Of a stretch of DNA of 59,397 nucleotides, positions 8,995 to 59,397 are shown in pieces. Source of the stretch: Protoeuglena noctilucae (lineage: Eukaryota); assembly GCA_958009085.1 (NCBI GenBank), contig OY253675.1, positions 1,178,001 through 1,237,397 of the forward strand, given 5' to 3'. Under the pieces are notes generated by a model, which saw only the letters and a list, made by a program, of their open reading frames with translations, made no database searches and was not told where the DNA came from. A program made the translations under genes and the position numbers. Numbering within the stretch: the first letter of the stretch is position 1; each line of letters begins with the position of its first letter.

Positions 8995-12615
<3,621 letters not shown>

Positions 12616-13349
12616 GGTAAGCACGCTTTGTCGATCAAAAGCCGCTGCGGGCCGACTCCGAGGACCGATGCGGCCGGAGACGACGCGAGGGACACCGCAG
12701 TCTTGAATGTATGGCGGCTGACGATGCGGATGGTGGAACAACAAAAGGGAGGGGCAACTTTGCCCGCCAGTGTCAGTTGTTTCGCTCGTGGCGCTTTCAT
12801 CTCATCCCGCTCTCGGGGGCTCGGGCACTCCTGAGTGTCGGCCCGGCGTGCCACTGGCTGGACCGGGTTCCTGGTGCGGCAGCTGGCTCGCCGGGGACTC
12901 CAGGTTGCCTCTCTCCGCAGTTGCTGCCACAGGACCCCCTGGCTGCCTTTACCTTCAAGCCCTCCTTCTTGGGTCGCTTTTGGGGGCCCTCGCTGTGCTC
13001 GGCACCCTCGTGGCGCTCGCCCCGGCACGCTCTGAGGCCCCCGTGCACTCTAGGACTTGGAACGGGTTCCGCCGGACCCGCCGGCCTGGAACCGCTTGAA
13101 AGGGGATCCTAACTGGGGAGCGTGTTCATGGTAACCCCTTCTGGGGACCTGGCGGAACCCGCGTAGAGCACGGGGTTCCCCTGGGGAACTGCAGCGGTGA
13201 CGCCCGCTTGGAGCCCGCCTGGGAGCCGAATTCCGATCTAGCTCCTTCCATTGCAGCCCTTGCTGCAGCCCCAGCCAGCCCCATGTCGTCCGGGAGTGGG
13301 TCCCTGGGGTGCGTACTTGATGGGCGCACTCGATGGGTGCACTCAATGA

Positions 13350-14036
13350 TTGCTGTCAGGCCGGCCTGGCGATCTTCCGCGCCGCTCACTGCGCGTACTC
13401 CGTGATCGCCACTCCCTTCTGTCACTGGGTGTACCCGGCCCTCCATGGTTCCCGCGCCCCGTGGGCGCTAACGATCCAATCGTGTCGAGGAAGAGCCAAT
13501 CCCTGCCGGGCATCTCCGTCGGGGATCGACTGTTCCTCGTGAAGATCGGGGTATCGGCGCCCCCGGGCAAGGGAGTGACGGTGCAGGGGTGCACAGGGAC
13601 GAGGCCTTGCGGGCCTGAGCTCCGGAGGGGGCGGGTGCCCTTGCGCAGCGCAGCAACGCCCCAAGTGAGTAGTGTGGCACGTGCAGCTACGAGCCACTGG
13701 CCGAGCTCGACGTGTTTGGCGGGAAGGGCGTCACCATCCGCGACCTCCTGGTGAGCCAGCGCGTGCTTGGATAGGTGGTCGGCCCGCCGGCCACGGACGC
13801 ACAGCGACGCCCCGGCATGCCCCTGCGTGCAGGACACTGTGAAGGGCCGGGAGCTGCTGGTGGCCATGGTTGGGACATGGATGAGCAAGGAGGGCTTCAT
13901 CGGCTCTGGGCGTTCCCGCTCTCGGTCGGTTTCGGATGGATGGAGCTAGGTCATGGAGGGCGAGGGGGTGGCCATCGATGTTGGGGTGGCTGCGATCGAG
14001 GGTACGGCACATTTGCCGTCGTGCTCGAGGCGGAGG
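13350..14036 (+). CDS. Possible unidentified spliced gene or fragment at the palindrome centre
   Basis: Exon-like blocks flanked by GT/AG: ...DRLFLVKIG, YEPLAELDVFGGKGVTIRDLL, DTVKGRELLVAMVGTWMSKEG. No family recognised; runs toward the gap. Confidence 0.25.
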
Positions 14037-14236: not shown

Positions 14237-17200
14237 CCCGGCCCTTCACAGTGTCCTGCACGCAGGGGCATGCCGGGGCGTCGCTGTGCGTCCGTGGCCG
14301 GCGGGCCGACCACCTATCCAAGCACGCGCTGGCTCACCAGGAGGTCGCGGATGGTGACGCCCTTCCCGCCAAACACGTCGAGCTCGGCCAGTGGCTCGTA
14401 GCTGCACGTGCCACACTACTCACTTGGGGCGTTGCTGCGCTGCGCAAGGGCACCCGCCCCCTCCGGAGCTCAGGCCCGCAAGGCCTCGTCCCTGTGCACC
14501 CCTGCACCGTCACTCCCTTGCCCGGGGGCGCCGATACCCCGATCTTCACGAGGAACAGTCGATCCCCGACGGAGATGCCCGGCAGGGATTGGCTCTTCCT
14601 CGACACGATTGGATCGTTAGCGCCCACGGGGCGCGGGAACCATGGAGGGCCGGGTACACCCAGTGACAGAAGGGAGTGGCGATCACGGAGTACGCGCAGT
14701 GAGCGGCGCGGAAGATCGCCAGGCCGGCCTGACAGCAATCATTGAGTGCACCCATCGAGTGCGCCCATCAAGTACGCACCCCAGGGACCCACTCCCGGAC
14801 GACATGGGGCTGGCTGGGGCTGCAGCAAGGGCTGCAATGGAAGGAGCTAGATCGGAATTCGGCTCCCAGGCGGGCTCCAAGCGGGCGTCACCGCTGCAGT
14901 TCCCCAGGGGAACCCCGTGCTCTACGCGGGTTCCGCCAGGTCCCCAGAAGGGGTTACCATGAACACGCTCCCCAGTTAGGATCCCCTTTCAAGCGGTTCC
15001 AGGCCGGCGGGTCCGGCGGAACCCGTTCCAAGTCCTAGAGTGCACGGGGGCCTCAGAGCGTGCCGGGGCGAGCGCCACGAGGGTGCCGAGCACAGCGAGG
15101 GCCCCCAAAAGCGACCCAAGAAGGAGGGCTTGAAGGTAAAGGCAGCCAGGGGGTCCTGTGGCAGCAACTGCGGAGAGAGGCAACCTGGAGTCCCCGGCGA
15201 GCCAGCTGCCGCACCAGGAACCCGGTCCAGCCAGTGGCACGCCGGGCCGACACTCAGGAGTGCCCGAGCCCCCGAGAGCGGGATGAGATGAAAGCGCCAC
15301 GAGCGAAACAACTGACACTGGCGGGCAAAGTTGCCCCTCCCTTTTGTTGTTCCACCATCCGCATCGTCAGCCGCCATACATTCAAGACTGCGGTGTCCCT
15401 CGCGTCGTCTCCGGCCGCATCGGTCCTCGGAGTCGGCCCGCAGCGGCTTTTGATCGACAAAGCGTGCTTACCATGTCCATCCGGTGCCTGTTGGTGGACA
15501 ACTACGACAGCTACACGTACAATCTGTTCCAGGCGAGACGCAGGCGCGGCGACATCCCCGGCAGCCGGCGCACGCCAGCCACTTGCGCTGCCAGACGTGC
15601 CGTCGTCGCCCCTGCAGCTCCTGTCCGTCGTTGGCGGGGGCCGCGTCGATGTCGTGCGCAACGACGCCGTCTCGTGGGAGGACCTGAGGCCCCGCATCGA
15701 GGCCGGCGACTGGCACTGCGTCGTCCTCTCGCCGGGGCCCGGCACGCCCGACCGGTGCGTGCAGCCGCTCCCCGCGCCCGCCGCAGCGTGGTCCGCCCCC
15801 GCGTGGCCCGCATCCCCGCCCTCCCGGTCTCCCTCCCGCAGCGCGTCGGACGTGGGCGTGTGCGTGGACGTGCTGCGCCACGTGGCGAGCGTGCCCGTCC
15901 TGGGCGTGTGCCTGGGCCACCAGGCTTTGGCCGCGGCGCACGGGGCGCGCGTCGTGCGGGCGCCGGAGCCCGTCCACGGCCGCCTGTCCCTCCTGGAGCA
16001 CGCCGGGCACCCGCTGTTCGCAGGCGTGCCCCCGTCCTCCCCCGTGGTCCGCTACCACTCGCTGGTGGTGGACGCGGCCACGCTGCCGGCGGAGCTCACG
16101 GCCATCGCGCACTGCACCCGCGAGACCTACGCGCCGCGGGCGGACCCCGCCGGTCGCGCGGGGGCGGACCCGGGGGAGCGGCTGGTGATGGCGCTGGCCC
16201 ACCGCACACGGCCGCATGTGGGGGTGCAGTTCCACCCAGAGAGCGTCCTCACGTCGCACGGGTGCGCGGCGCATGCGAACAGCGGCCGGCGCGACTGGGT
16301 CACTGCCTGGCACATGACGGGCGCTCCTCGCATGCTCCCTCGCAGGCCGCGCATGGTGGAGAACTTCCTGCGCATGGCCGCGGCCTTCTGGGGAGGGGCT
16401 ACGGTACCTGCATTGCTGGGCGTCCCCGCTGCTGCTGGGGCGATGGTGCACCGGAGTGCACTGGAGGAGGAGTGGGCACAGGCCGGGTGCAGAGGTGCGT
16501 TCGGTGGTGGGGGAGACCATGCGAGGGCAGTGGCGTGTGCGCGTATGCTCTGTTGATCTCATCTGCAGAATAGGGGCGCTGCGTGCAGATGGCTCTCTGG
16601 GGCTGTGCTACCGCAAGGTGGCGGGCGTGCTGGGCGCGGTGGGTGGCTCCGGCAACCTCTTCTGGAGACTGTTTGGGGGGGAAGAGCCCCGGATGCCGGG
16701 CACCGGGTGCTTCTGGCTCGACAGCGCAGCCGCGGACCGGTGAGGGCGGGGCGGTGGGGGACAGTTAGGCGACGCATGGGATGGGATGGCCTGGCAGCGA
16801 CGCTGCTGAGCGTGCGTTCGCAGGGGTCGGTTCTCTTTCATGGGGGCGCGGGGAGGGCCCCTGTGGCGGCGGTGGGTGTACTGGGTGCCGCGGGGAGAGG
16901 AGCGGGAGGGGCGGCTCGAGGTCACGGACGGGCCAGGGGCGGGTGAGCTGGCTGCTGGGGGCATTGTCAGCTGCCTGGTTGCAACGCGTGCGCGGACACG
17001 TGATGGCATCACCTTCATCGCCCCTCCAGGTGTCAGTGTCGCGGGGGTCCGCTGCTGGGGTCGCTGAAGGCGGCGCTGGGGGAGGCGCGGGTGCGGTGGG
17101 GGCCAGGAGACGCGGCGGCCCTGCCGTTCGACTTCTGGGGGGGCTTCGTGGGGGTACCTGGGGTACGAGATGCACGCCGAGTGCATGGAGGGGGGCGGGC

Positions 17201-17259
17201 CGCAGCCGCGGGACAGGTGAGAGGGTGGGCGGGTGCGCAAGGGGCGGGGGAGGTGTTGT
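14237..17259. repeat. Right arm of ~3-kb inverted duplication
   Basis: Near-identical reverse complement of 10833-13851; the few differences seen are distal, mostly +1 G in homopolymers. Confidence 0.95.
15473..17218 (+). pseudogene. Truncated second copy of ADC synthase 5' half
   Basis: Same ATG and GATase exons as the minus-strand gene; frameshifting G insertions distally; lacks the C-terminal PabB exons. Confidence 0.8.
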
Positions 17260-17817: not shown

Positions 17818-17929
17818 TGGCTGGCGTGCGCCGGCTGCCGGGGATGTCGCCGCGCCTGCGTCTCGCCTGGAACAGATTGTACGTGTAGCTGTCGTAGTTG
17901 TCCACCAACAGGCACCGGAGGGACATGGT
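17818..17929 (-). pseudogene. Third 112-bp fragment of ADC synthase exon 1 plus start of intron 1
   Basis: Matches 12507-12618 in the same orientation with one substitution. Confidence 0.9.
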
Positions 17930-18151
17930 TGTGCACGCCATGCTGGTTGAAGGTGCTGCTGCAGGCCGGCTCTGAGGGCGATGGGCGCGGAGGTTACGCG
18001 TGGGACACCGCGTATCTTTATCTGGATGGCTGGCGAGACAGGAGGCGGAAAATTTAGAGGAGGGAGCCCAGTTGGCCCGCCCCAGTCAGCTGTTTCATTC
18101 GCGGGGAGGGCTCTGGTTCATAGTTCTTGAACTCCACTTCCTATACTTTGG

Positions 18152-18223
18152 GATGCCGTGGCGCAGTGGAAGCGCAGTTGCTTTACACGCAAAAGGTCGT
18201 CGGTTCGAACCCGACCGGCGTCA
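18152..18223 (+). tRNA. trnV-UAC: tRNA-Val(UAC)
   Basis: Acceptor GATGCCG/CGGCGTC+A, D arm GCGC/GCGC, anticodon loop TT-TAC-AC, T arm GTCGG-TTCGAAC-CCGAC. Confidence 0.95.
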
Positions 18224-18247
18224 CACGGCCTGTGGAACATACAAGCG

Positions 18248-18356
18248 AACCCTTGGCGGAAGCCGCGCAGGTTCGAATCCTGCCGAACACGGTCTCTCCC
18301 GGATGGATTCTGGGACGACGTGTTCGTCGCCTAGTGGCTATGGCGAGGGTCTTGAA
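18248..18356 (+). tRNA. trnS-UGA: Circularly permuted tRNA-Ser(UGA): 3' half 18248-18291, 28-nt intervening hairpin, 5' half 18320-18356
   Basis: 5' half GTGTTCG-TC-GCC-TAGTGGCTAT-GGC-G-AGGGT-CT-TGA-A (37 nt). 3' half A-ACCCT, long variable arm GGC-GGAA-GCC, GCAGG-TTCGAAT-CCTGC, CGAACAC-G. The acceptor (7 bp) and anticodon (5 bp) stems pair perfectly across the halves; G73 and the long arm fit Ser. Confidence 0.93.
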
Positions 18357-18365
18357 TGTCGGGCC

Positions 18366-18385
18366 TTTTTGCTTTTTTTGTTTTT
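18366..18385 (+). terminator. RNA polymerase III T-run terminator
   Basis: T5-GC-T7-G-T5 just after the permuted tRNA trailer, in otherwise GC-rich DNA. Confidence 0.85.
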
Positions 18386-18391
18386 CCCGCG

Positions 18392-18487
18392 CCCCGGGGT
18401 GTCAGCTGCCCCGGGGGACGGCACTTCTGCCGCAAGGCGTGGCTCTGAGAGTCATAGCACCCCTCGACTGTTGAATCGCTCATCATC
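18392..18487 (+). mobile_element. Retroposon-like repeat, copy 1 (5'-truncated)
   Basis: Identical to the 3' part of copies 2 and 3; ends in TCATCATC; no clear TSD. Confidence 0.65.
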
Positions 18488-18610
18488 TCCGGGGGACGGC
18501 GCCCCTGTCGCGACCACGCCATGGACCCGCTCGGTGCTGCGGCACCCGGCGCTGGTGCCGCTGTGGACCGAGGCGCAGAGGCTCGCGGCGGGCCTCGACA
18601 TCACTTGGGA

Positions 18611-18722
18611 CTGCAACGATGGAAACCCCGGGGTGTCAGCTGCCCCGGGGGACGGCACTTCTGCCGCAAGGCGTGGCTCTGAGAGTCATAGCACCCCTCG
18701 ACTGTTGAATCGCTCATCATCA
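18611..18722 (+). mobile_element. Retroposon-like repeat, copy 2, with 16-bp target-site duplication
   Basis: Flanked by TCGACATCACTTGGGA at 18595-18610 and 18723-18738; (TCA)n tail. Confidence 0.8.
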
Positions 18723-18942: not shown

Positions 18943-19543
18943 GCACACGGCCGAGTGGGTCGTGCCGGCGCACGCACCCGGAGCGGGGCGGTCTGGGGCG
19001 GTCCATATGAGAGGCAGCCGGCCCTCAGGGGCGCCGCGTGGGCGAGCGGGGCGCCCAGGGGCAACGCTGCGCCCCCCAAGGAACGCCGTCTGCGTTCGGA
19101 CCGTCCCCACCGCCCTCGCGTCCGGGCCAGCGTCGCCGGGTGGGCGAGCCAGCCGGGCCGCCTGAGGAGGATGGGAGGAGGGTAGGGAGCGGGGGATGTC
19201 ATGATTGGCCGCACATAAGCTACACAGATCGTCATTAGCCTCGGCCTCACCTTTTGTAATAGACGCCCGGGGGTCTCCACGGAGGGCCCCCGCGGCTGCA
19301 TCGTCCCACTCTGGGACGGCGATTCTGCCTTCGGGCGCAGCGAGGGGGCTAGGGGTGCAAGAATCCGGGGTGGGCGACCCCTTTGCCTTCGGGTGGGGCA
19401 ACCTAGCGGGGGCGGGTCTTAGTGCCGATGCACTGCAACGATGGAAACCCCGGGGTGTCAGCTGCCCCGGGGGACGGCACTTCTGCCGCAAGGCGTGGCT
19501 CTGAGAGTCATAGCACCCCTCGACTGTTGAATCGCTCATCATC
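18943..19543 (+). mobile_element. Retroposon-like repeat, copy 3, putative longer (~600 bp) non-coding element
   Basis: The 3' 111 bp (19433-19543) are identical to copy 2; candidate 11-bp TSD TGGGTCTCTGG at 18932-18942 and 19544-19554. Confidence 0.6.
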
Positions 19544-56600: not shown

Positions 56601-59162
56601 GGCACTCGAGGCGCACGAGGGGCCGGCGCACCTGGACGGGGCAGGCGATGCGCTGACGGCGGCGCTGGAGCAGGCGCGGGCGGCGGAGGCGCTGGCGGAG
56701 GGGTGCGCGAGGTGACCGCGGCTCTGATGCTTGGGCGCGGGGTGGCAGCAACGGTGGCCCAGCGCCATGCTGTGCCCCTGCAACGGGCAGCCGGCCCTTC
56801 CTCGCGCACAGGCAGTCGCGGATGGACCGAGCTGCGGTCGAGTCGACTGCCGCTGCCCTGGCCAGCACCTCCTCTCCCCAAGCGATGCGGACGTACGCGG
56901 CCCAGGCGGCGCGGTCTGCCCTTGCTGCAGACCTGGCCGGGGCACTGGCAGCCGCAGCCAAAGACATCCGCAGCGAGAGTGAGGATGCTGCAGTCTGTCG
57001 GGGAAACGCGCCCCGCTTGTGCCACGCGACCTGCGCTGCAGTGTGTGACCTTCGCCCGCCCCCGCAGTGGCGCCCGTGCGTGCGGTCGTGGCCCTGGCCT
57101 CGTCGGCCCTTCCCACAGCGCAGGCGTCCCCCGCCCGGCTGATGTGGGCCCTGGCCAACGCGCCACCCGGCAGCCTGGCAGCCGAGGACGCCCAGGCGCT
57201 CGCCTCTCTTGCAAAGGGCCGGCACGCTGCCCGCCGCACAGGCACGAGGAGTGCGCGATGTCGGGTCGCATGGATGCTCAATGGCTAACATGTATGCGAC
57301 TTCCTGTCCCTTCCGCGCCTCCAGGCCACCACGGGTCAGACCGGCATCCGGACCTCCGTGCGTCGGTCACGGTCGCGGCCCTCCCACCTCCCCTGCCAGC
57401 CGCGTCGATGGGGCGCATCGGCGCAGACGCCGCGGCTCACGGGGGTGCGGAGGACCGCCTGGCCGCACGCACCCTCCAGTGCCAGGCCACCACCACAGGG
57501 CACCTGCTGGCCTGGGGAGGGAGGCACACGGGCGTGGAGGCGAGCGCGGGACGGGGTCGCATTCGGGGCTAAGCGCGTGCAGTCGCGCGCAACCACGCTG
57601 CCGTGTCTCTTCCCGCCTCGCAGGTCCTGGACGCCGACACGGGGGCGCGCATCGGCCACCTGGACCACGCCAGGCACGGACTGGGGCGCCCCTGGGGATG
57701 CGCGCAGGTCCTGGACACGGGTGAGAGGCTGCGGGCTGTAATGTCCTGGTTCTCTGGTTGCGCGATGTGACCGCCCCCGTGATAGCGATGCAGCACCCCA
57801 CGCCTCACCCCCCGCAGCCTTCTGCGCGACGTGGGGATGTGCGGGCCTGGTGTGCATCTGGGACATACCCTCCGCTGCCCTATGCCACACCGTCCCCGTC
57901 CCCAGCGCCCCTCTGCTTGGCGTGGCCTTCTCCCGGCCTCGCGTGCCAGCCCACGGGTCGGCGGGTGCGGCCAGTGGCGCCCAGACAGACTCGCCCGCTG
58001 CCAGCCGGGCGCCTGCAGAGTCGACCAGCGACGCGCGGTGGTGGAGCAAGCGCCAGGGGAAGAGGCGAGTGGGGCGATGGGCGGGGCGACGATCCTGCTG
58101 TTAGGATGGGTCGGGGCTAGGACGCCTATGTTGCTGCTTCCCGCAGGACGGACGGCGTAAAGCCGGGAGTGGCGCCAACCTCGCCGTCCACGGCCCCCCC
58201 GGCCAAGCGGTGGTCGACCACATGCGACGAGGGCCTCTCGTGCTTGGTGAGAGACGCGCGGGTGGCACGCTGTGCGGCACAGCCTTGCTGGCCATCTCAC
58301 GCACGTATCCGGCTCGGGTGCTCAGGCGTGGGACGCCGGGGGCAGCGTGTGGAGTGTCCAGGTGGGGGCCGGCCGGGAGGCGCGGTCGCTGACGGGGCAA
58401 CGGGCGACGTTCGTGGGGGCGAAGCCGCAGCCTGGTTGCGTCGTGGTGGGGTTCGAGGACGGGAGCTTGCAGGCGTGGCGGCCTGGGGACGCGGAGGCGT
58501 GGGCGGAGATGAGGGCGGCGTCGGGAGAGGCGAGGGGCACTGTGCGCTCTGCGGCATGGCATGGCTAGGAGAGGCACGCATAATCGAGCGCATGACTTTC
58601 ATTCGCAGATGTTGCCCGTGGTCGGGGCGGCGCTGCTGCCTCGCGGCTCTGCGATGGGGAGGAAGCGGCAGGAGGCGGCTGGGCCGGCCCCCCGCCCCTT
58701 CCGGGAGGCGCTGTCGTGGCACGAGGACGGCAGCCTCGTCCTGTGGGTGCGTGGAGATTTGATAGGGTGCAGGCTAGCGCGGAGGCTGCGTCTGTGAGAT
58801 GGCAGCCGTGCCCCTGACCTCCATCGCAGGACGCGGACGAGGGTCGCGTGGCGTCGCGGGGCAGGCAAGGGGAGGATCACGAGGGAGAGCGGTCCGCGGC
58901 AGTGATGGGGATCGCGAGCCTGCGAGCTGGCGGGGCGGAGACGGACGGCGCCCTCCGCAGGGGCGACACGTTCGTAACGTGGGACGGGGCGGGGACGCTG
59001 GCGCTGTGGGGGTGGCATGGCGCCGGGCTGGAGTCCACCCGCTCGCTGCGCATGCCCCTCGTAGACGGGGGGCGCGTGGCGGACGCGGTGGCTGCGGGGG
59101 ACGGCAGGCGAGTGGCGGGCGTGTGTGATGGTGGGTTAGGTAGGCAGGTTAGGGTTAGGTAG
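50629..59162 (+). CDS. Large divergent multi-exon protein with NACHT/STAND-like core and C-terminal WD40-like repeats, abutting the telomere
   Basis: MGNTC start (possible acylation motif), Walker-B-like VLVVVDGLD..RLPRRLRVVAT, winged-helix-like LLVTARDPLRPSDV, WD-like VVGFEDGSLQAW and FVTWDGAGTLALW. No clear Walker A; may be more than one gene. Confidence 0.5.
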
Positions 59163-59397
59163 GGTTAGGGTAGTAGTTTTTTAGGGCTAGTTAGGGTTAG
59201 GTAGGTTTAGGGTTAGGGTTAGGGTTAGGGTTAGGGTTAGGGTTAGGGTTAGGGTTAGGGTTAGGGTTAGGGTTAGGGTTAGGGTTAGGGTTAGGGTTAG
59301 GGTTAGGGTTAGGGTTAGGGTTAGGGTTAGGGTTAGGGTTAGGGTTAGGGTTAGGGTTAGGGTTAGGGTTAGGGTTAGGGTTAGGGTTAGGGTTAGG
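59133..59397 (+). repeat. Telomere (TTAGGG)n with degenerate proximal units
   Basis: Variant units 59133-59206, perfect TTAGGG array from 59207 to the window end. Confidence 0.98.

Follow-up and report, generated by a model that had tools for sequence, protein, structure and literature searches.

A tRNA-Val(UAC) gene directly upstream of a permuted tRNA-Ser(UGA) gene in a marine green alga: a probable two-gene RNA polymerase III unit

Circularly permuted tRNA genes are said to have been described in Cyanidioschyzon merolae and in green algae by Soma in 2007 and by Maruyama in 2010. How the eukaryotic genes of this kind are transcribed is an acknowledged open point: their B and A boxes are inverted, an order unsuited to TFIIIC, and they are usually proposed to rely on a TATA-like promoter upstream (Soma 2014, section 5, PMC3978253). 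The question is raised anew by a locus of Protoeuglena noctilucae, where a permuted tRNA-Ser(UGA) gene closely follows an intact tRNA-Val(UAC) gene on the same strand. The window analyzed here is the whole stretch of 59,397 nt from contig OY253675.1, with a GC content of 67.6%, and coordinates without a locus label refer to this window. Our analysis indicates that Val and the permuted Ser probably form a nuclear two-gene RNA polymerase III (Pol III) unit of this marine green alga, working by the mechanism proposed below, and it suggests that the Val promoter switches on the permuted Ser gene.

The first cistron is a canonical tRNA gene, in which the A box precedes the B box, the acceptor stem has 7 bp, and the discriminator is A73 (Table 1). 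It is the single tRNA called by ARAGORN across the 59 kb of native DNA, and Rfam RF00005 recognizes it over 18152-18223 with 63.3 bits (E-value 2e-11, gathering score 29). The B-box motif GGTTCRANNCC has two matches in the window, both at the Val-Ser locus, a count that is weak if taken alone, 27 of 100 shuffles yielding at least two matches. The 40 nt at 18110-18149, immediately upstream of the gene, have a GC content of 0.40, and equally AT-rich 40-nt windows make up only 0.5% of the window. The coordinates given in the preliminary description of this DNA for Val, the Ser halves, the spacer and the trailer all held when the sequence was checked again.

Table 1. Coordinates of the Val-Ser unit, of the neighbouring short element and of the related metagenomic loci
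Feature	Coordinates	Strand	Basis or remark
AT-rich 5' flank ttcatagttcttgaactccacttcctatacttt	18110-18151	+	likely Pol III start region; GC of 40-nt window
Joint Val-Ser RNA, extent	18142-18369	+	metatranscriptome contigs X1, X2
tRNA-Val(UAC), intact leader gene	18152-18223/4	+	ARAGORN; Rfam RF00005
tRNA-Val A-box-like TGGCGCAGTGG	about 18159-18170	+	sequence
tRNA-Val B box GGTTCGAACCC	18202-18212	+	B-box motif match
Leader (inter-cistron stretch), 24 nt	18224-18247	+	sequence; MFE fold; no T4 run
tRNA-Ser(UGA) 3' half, 44 nt, positions 38-73	18248-18291	+	ARAGORN on rejoined sequence
B box within the T arm of the Ser 3' half	18270-18280	+	
Intervening linker, 28 nt, acceptor 3' end to 5' end	18292-18319	+	MFE fold
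tRNA-Ser(UGA) 5' half, 37 nt, positions 1-37	18320-18356	+	ARAGORN on rejoined sequence
Trailer TGTCGGGCC, 9 nt, pairs with leader	18357-18365	+	MFE fold
Pol III-type terminator T5-GC-T7-G-T5	18366-18385	+	T-run count
High-copy short element, three copies	18392-18487, 18610-18721, 19432-19543		
Permuted tRNA-Ser(CGA) loci	L009 483-575, L080 483-590, L118 153-252		metagenomes

In the native gene order, the second cistron is not called by ARAGORN, and its halves are not recognized as tRNA by Rfam; with a permissive Rfam threshold, tRNA-Val alone passes in 17900-18700. The 3' half, which has the features of a class II tRNA, comprises the 3' strand of the anticodon stem, the long variable arm, the T arm, the 3' strand of the acceptor stem and G73, and the 5' half comprises the 5' strand of the acceptor stem, the D arm (with the A-box-like TCGCCTAGTGG), the 5' strand of the anticodon stem and C32-A37 including the anticodon TGA. 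When the halves were rejoined in silico (18320-18356 + 18248-18291) and the product was given to ARAGORN, it was called as tRNA-Ser(tga) of 81 nt, a clean cloverleaf with 7 of 7 acceptor pairs, a 5-bp anticodon stem, the loop CTTGAAA, a long variable arm, the T arm GCAGG/CCTGC and G73. All stems of the rejoined molecule pair, and U8, U33 and the T-loop are intact, so that the original reading of this sequence as a permuted tRNA-Ser(UGA) is confirmed. The native DNA at 18266-18344 also has a weak match to Rfam YrlA (Y RNA-like; 15.5 bits, E-value 3.8, far under the gathering score), which is taken as a mere echo of the permuted order T arm-acceptor-D arm.

The minimum free energy (MFE) fold of 18224-18369 (146 nt) has an energy of -70 kcal/mol (z = -4.46), and none of 200 shuffles is as stable. 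The elements of the leader that take part in it are GGCCTG (18227-32), ACAT (18237-40) and CAAG (18242-45), their partners being the trailer and the anticodon loop. Both pairings proposed from the sequence alone appear in this fold, namely that of leader with trailer (GGCCUG/CGGGCC and ACAU/AUGU) and that of the leader CAAG with CUUG (C32-G35), the latter as a 4-bp anticodon helix. The 3-nt bulge C-G-A38, expected at the 3' cut site, is present as well. The 5' cut site (A37|U), however, has no 3-nt bulge: A36 forms a bulge of 1 nt, while A37 takes part in a pair. This makes the bulge-helix-bulge a relaxed one, as it had been characterized in the preliminary description. In addition, the fold closes the acceptor stem, and the linker caps it with a 7-bp hairpin of its own, stacked on this stem.

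On a tRNA gene, Pol III needs a T-run in order to stop. In agreement with the earlier claim that no such run separates Val from the end of Ser, TTTT is absent from 18224-18365, and the first run of at least four T is at 18366, though this absence is weak evidence if taken alone, as 94% of random 142-nt stretches of the window also lack TTTT. The significant signal is the position of the longer runs: all three runs of at least five T that the + strand has outside the telomere (59.1 kb; run starts at 18366, 18373 and 18381) are clustered right behind the Ser 5' half, and none is behind Val. Accordingly, the spacer between the cistrons is terminator-free, the permuted gene has no T-stretch inside, and the one terminator is 3' of the second cistron. 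Since Val has no T-run before 18366, established Pol III behaviour implies read-through into Ser, and the RNA contigs agree with this.

Public sequencing runs were sought with 17950-18650, and four runs were placed on 17900-18600, among them two marine metatranscriptome runs from different samples of a single study (X1 and X2), a further RNA run (X5) and a DNA-like run from the same organism (X6). In X2, an RNA contig of 228 nt lies with its whole length on 18142-18369 (0 mismatches, depth 24.3), and in X1, letters 7-226 of a 226-nt contig lie on 18150-18369 (0 mismatches, depth 7.1). Both contigs start just 5' of Val and stop four T into the first T-run, at 18369. Cover is zero in both runs over 17900-18139 and 18370-18391, and the downstream repeat and a further transcript are covered at a depth comparable to that of the Val-Ser unit. 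None of the contigs listed in the RNA runs begins between Val and Ser. The DNA-like run X6 has one contig across 17900-18421 with 0 differences; as it bridges the flanks, the ends of the RNA contigs reflect the predicted transcript rather than an interruption of the DNA. The identification of the 228- and 226-nt contigs with the predicted dicistronic primary transcript is thus supported, although assembled contigs do not formally fix its start, end and strand. The two full-span contigs and the silent flanks lend direct support to the earlier proposal of one Pol III unit running from Val into the permuted Ser and ending at the only terminator. In X5, cover is restricted to the neighbouring repeat (18392-18484), and the bare tRNA unit in this run was left out of the argument.

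This repeat is the 5'-truncated copy of a short element, and it begins 22 nt behind the first T-run of the tRNA terminator. It is identical over 96 nt to the two complete copies, which are 112 nt long and 100% identical to each other, with ~14 nt (cgacatcacttggg) directly duplicated on either side of the one at 18610. The depth of the element in the DNA-like run is ~2,000 times that of the single-copy flanks, and many different flanks are joined to it in the RNA runs; these features suggest a mobile element resembling introners or MITEs. The window also contains an inverted repeat of 3,023 bp (10833-13851 and 14237-17259, 99.8% identity, 385 bp apart), which duplicates the glutamine-amidotransferase part of the aminodeoxychorismate synthase gene and represents a genuine palindrome or else an artefact of assembly. 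A 196-bp stretch (12507-12698) has 87% identity to 17818-18011, a segment that shortly precedes the tRNA unit. The end of the window (59148-59397) is a chromosome end with ~35 perfect telomeric TTAGGG repeats, preceded by the degenerate variants TTAGG, TAGGG and TTTAGGG. At a loose end behind 18284 in run X6, another contig of the same organism has the Ser T arm and then 30 nt more; by eye, these look like the 3' strand of an acceptor followed, after a spacer of ~5 nt, by the beginning of another tRNA (…GTAGCTCAG…). This hints at tightly packed tRNA pairs elsewhere in the same genome.

According to the proposed mechanism, transcription would start a few bases 5' of tRNA-Val, whose A and B boxes are in the correct order and whose 5' flank is AT-rich. 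The polymerase would pass the terminator-free gap of 24 nt, go through the permuted Ser (3' half, 28-nt linker, 5' half) and stop at the T5-T7-T5 block. The resulting precursor of ~228 nt would then be dismantled, with tRNA-Val being freed by RNase P and RNase Z. The relaxed bulge-helix-bulge, to which leader, trailer and anticodon loop contribute, would be cut by the tRNA-splicing endonuclease at G18247|A38 and A37|U18357, and a ligase would seal A37 to A38, giving a circle, from which RNase P and RNase Z would excise the 28-nt linker before the addition of CCA. The Ser part could be released even without RNase Z, since the endonuclease cut at G18247|A38 would be sufficient. We infer that Ser depends on the Val promoter, that the precursor would undergo every one of these processing steps, and that they would yield a functional mature tRNA-Ser.

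The alternative source of transcription would be a signal of Ser itself, either its inverted B and A boxes or a cryptic element in Val or overlapping it; the two genes would then be independent, and the joint RNA would be Val read-through that adds little to Ser. Permuted genes elsewhere are presumed to be read from TATA-like promoters upstream (Soma 2014, section 5, PMC3978253), and three stand-alone permuted Ser(CGA) loci, considered below, demonstrate that a leader tRNA is not needed in relatives; the contigs, too, are compatible with a second, shorter RNA. What precedes the Ser 3' half, however, leaves little space for such a promoter. The 24 nt before this half are the leader, and before them is the GC-rich T arm of Val (GC content 0.60-0.65), therefore there is no room for a separate promoter, and no AT-rich or TATA-like stretch was found within 18170-18247 (GC content 0.50-0.65). 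Moreover, the RNA contigs start 5' of Val with none of those listed starting between the genes, and with no terminator of its own behind Val, read-through would be obligatory rather than occasional. Independent transcription of the two genes is thus unlikely, and Val as the supplier of the promoter appears to be the most economical model.

A joint transcript would also be expected if the permuted Ser were a non-functional relic of a tandem duplication, carried as a long 3' trailer of Val and degraded. The departure of the 5' cut site from the canonical bulge and the vicinity of repeats and of the 3-kb inverted duplication would fit such an origin, but decay is not what is seen in the gene: both halves are intact, with all stems paired and with U8, U33, the T-loop and G73 in place; a stable leader-trailer helix (z = -4.46) is retained and positions both cut sites, and the strongest terminator block of the 59 kb is exactly behind the Ser 5' half and not behind Val. 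We consider a relic improbable for these reasons. Misassembly, or contamination of the RNA libraries with DNA, which such libraries can contain, is a very remote explanation, given that the locus is recovered without differences in a single contig of the independent DNA-like run, and that the RNA runs leave the flanks bare and cover the unit at a depth similar to that of neighbouring mRNA contigs.

The permuted Ser resembles type II permuted tRNAs, as treated in PMC3978253, in the order of the halves (3' before 5'), in the junction 37/38, in the pairing of leader and trailer and in the T-stretch behind the 5' half, and its linker of 28 nt is within the range of 1-74 bp known for the intervening sequences of permuted genes (Soma 2014, Table 1, PMC3978253). 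Serine isoacceptors are the commonest permuted species according to this review, and its Table 1 contains permuted Ser(TGA) from O. tauri, O. lucimarinus and Micromonas RCC299. Still, the mature Ser(UGA) of the present locus and O. tauri Ser(TGA) have strongly different sequences, and a Ser(UGA) with a 28-nt linker is absent from that table, which dates from 2014. The same review, in the part considered here, traces transcription to TATA-like or "ambiguous AT-rich" upstream regions, whereas at the Val-Ser locus there is a complete tRNA gene 24 nt away instead. The list of lineages in the preliminary description (Cyanidioschyzon, Ostreococcus/Micromonas, a chlorarachniophyte nucleomorph and an archaeon) is incomplete; the literature has permuted tRNAs also in Bathycoccus and its virus BpV1 (PMC3673656), in the Amorphochlora nucleomorph (PMC4494063) and in Auxenochlorella (PMC12633428).

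In a metagenome collection, a 24-mer of the Ser 5' half had no exact match, so that no close relative of the locus came to light, and a 21-mer of the T arm matched at least 122 loci. Among the T-arm matches listed, 97 are within canonical tRNAs, mostly bacterial Arg(CCG), and three of the 25 others listed are permuted tRNA-Ser(CGA) genes (L009, L080 and L118); the remaining 22 were rejected, most of them being taken for tRNA-like 3' ends from bacteria or for genes truncated at a contig end. The three Ser(CGA) loci have a GC content of 0.46-0.51, identical halves that differ from the published O. tauri sequence in one base, and linkers of 11, 26 and 18 nt, respectively. Leader-trailer helices are formed in L009 and L080, in each from different sequences. 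No leader tRNA was found by ARAGORN upstream of any of the three (152-482 nt upstream examined), and all three have AT-rich, TATA-like stretches 40-75 nt upstream; thus, a leader tRNA is not the rule. It is one solution and not a universal layout. L009 and L080 also share the motif tttgaccccatccagc about 130-160 nt upstream.

A permuted tRNA-Thr(UGU) has been reported for the Bathycoccus virus BpV1 (PMC3673656), and a 22-nt motif of this published gene, used as a probe, matched 36 IMG/VR contigs (L123-L158). In 32 of these prasinovirus-like contigs, the Thr 3' half is 12-15 nt behind a canonical tRNA-Asn(GUU) on the same strand, which belongs to a Gln-Leu-Asn array; in the other four, a leader tRNA before the permuted Thr is absent. 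All 33 complete viral loci rejoin to tRNA-Thr(tgt). The viral pairs are similar to the Val-Ser locus in that a permuted tRNA closely follows a canonical tRNA on the same strand, but differ from it in having a T-run between the genes: a T4 or T5 run is present behind Asn in 31 of the 32 Asn-Thr pairs. A run of at least four T (T4-T7) is also found inside the permuted Thr gene in 11 of the 33 complete loci. The juxtaposition therefore recurs in viruses, and short T-runs may be non-terminating in these arrays. The adjacency of Asn and Thr is not mentioned in the part of PMC3673656 considered here.

Precedents for a leader tRNA are known from dicistronic Pol III genes, with S. pombe tRNA-Ser/tRNA-Met, hemiascomycete tandem tDNAs, plant tRNA-Gly/snoRNA, Yarrowia tRNA/5S rRNA and tRNA/RUF70 as examples (PMC2566860). 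In the tandem tRNA genes of yeasts, the terminator is behind the second gene, the spacing goes down to 3 nt, and expression rests solely on the promoter of the upstream gene (PMC2566860). Like the Val-Ser locus, these systems, as described there, have a canonical tRNA first, a very short spacer, a single terminator at the end, one primary transcript and a passenger without a usable promoter of its own. Unlike them, the permuted passenger of the Val-Ser locus would need cutting by the splicing endonuclease, circularization and reopening, beyond the release by RNase Z and RNase P. A validated joint tRNA precursor from a marine green picoalga is the dicistronic mncR67-tRNA-Glu of O. tauri (bioRxiv 10.64898/2026.07.10.737489); there, however, the partner is a medium-sized non-coding RNA and not a permuted tRNA, and the search for permuted tRNAs in this preprint, in the part considered here, is separate.

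The combination of a permuted tRNA with a leader tRNA is absent from the portions considered here of a literature that includes PMC3978253, PMC13578239, PMC4494063, PMC12633428, PMC3673656, PlantRNA 2.0 and the O. tauri telomere-to-telomere preprints, with Maruyama 2010 and the preprint supplements outside the scope of the search. Within this scope, the search agrees with the initial impression that the arrangement is undescribed. Permuted tRNAs and dicistronic Pol III genes with a leader tRNA are each known, and it is their combination that appears to be new.

The affinity of the host was considered from the genes of the window, which are nuclear and split by introns and encode SufB, aminodeoxychorismate synthase, SLU7 and an ODAD1-like coiled coil. 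SufB (nuclear, intron-split) has up to 88% identity to chlorophyte SufB over the conserved core and is too conserved to resolve the affinity. The aminodeoxychorismate synthase piece has 42-48% identity to diverse chlorophytes (Trebouxiophyceae, Chlorophyceae) and 45% to Micromonas commoda, and the best named matches of SLU7 are from streptophytes. As judged from these sequences, the window proteins place the host in the green lineage, where no named proteome is close; its distance from Micromonas (45% identity) is not smaller than that from other named green algae and plants. An origin from Micromonas is therefore rejected, and the host does not belong to the catalogued strains of Micromonas or Ostreococcus. 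With this locus, the range of permuted tRNAs comes to include a green alga for which three proteins reveal no close relative among named organisms.

It is possible, though on balance doubtful, that riding on a canonical tRNA is a general route by which tRNA genes with scrambled promoters arise and persist where internal promoters of the TFIIIC type remain in use. In that case, the sole tRNA-Ser(UGA) of this poorly sampled green lineage would be an obligate passenger of Val, which would couple the supplies of both tRNAs, and the prasinovirus pair of Asn and permuted Thr would be a second independent case. For the transcription of permuted genes, the Val-Ser locus offers a second and directly testable solution, in which a normal tRNA gene lends its promoter. 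Moreover, the joint precursor would be a natural substrate for RNase P, RNase Z, the splicing endonuclease and the ligase, in which the succession of processing reactions may be traced.
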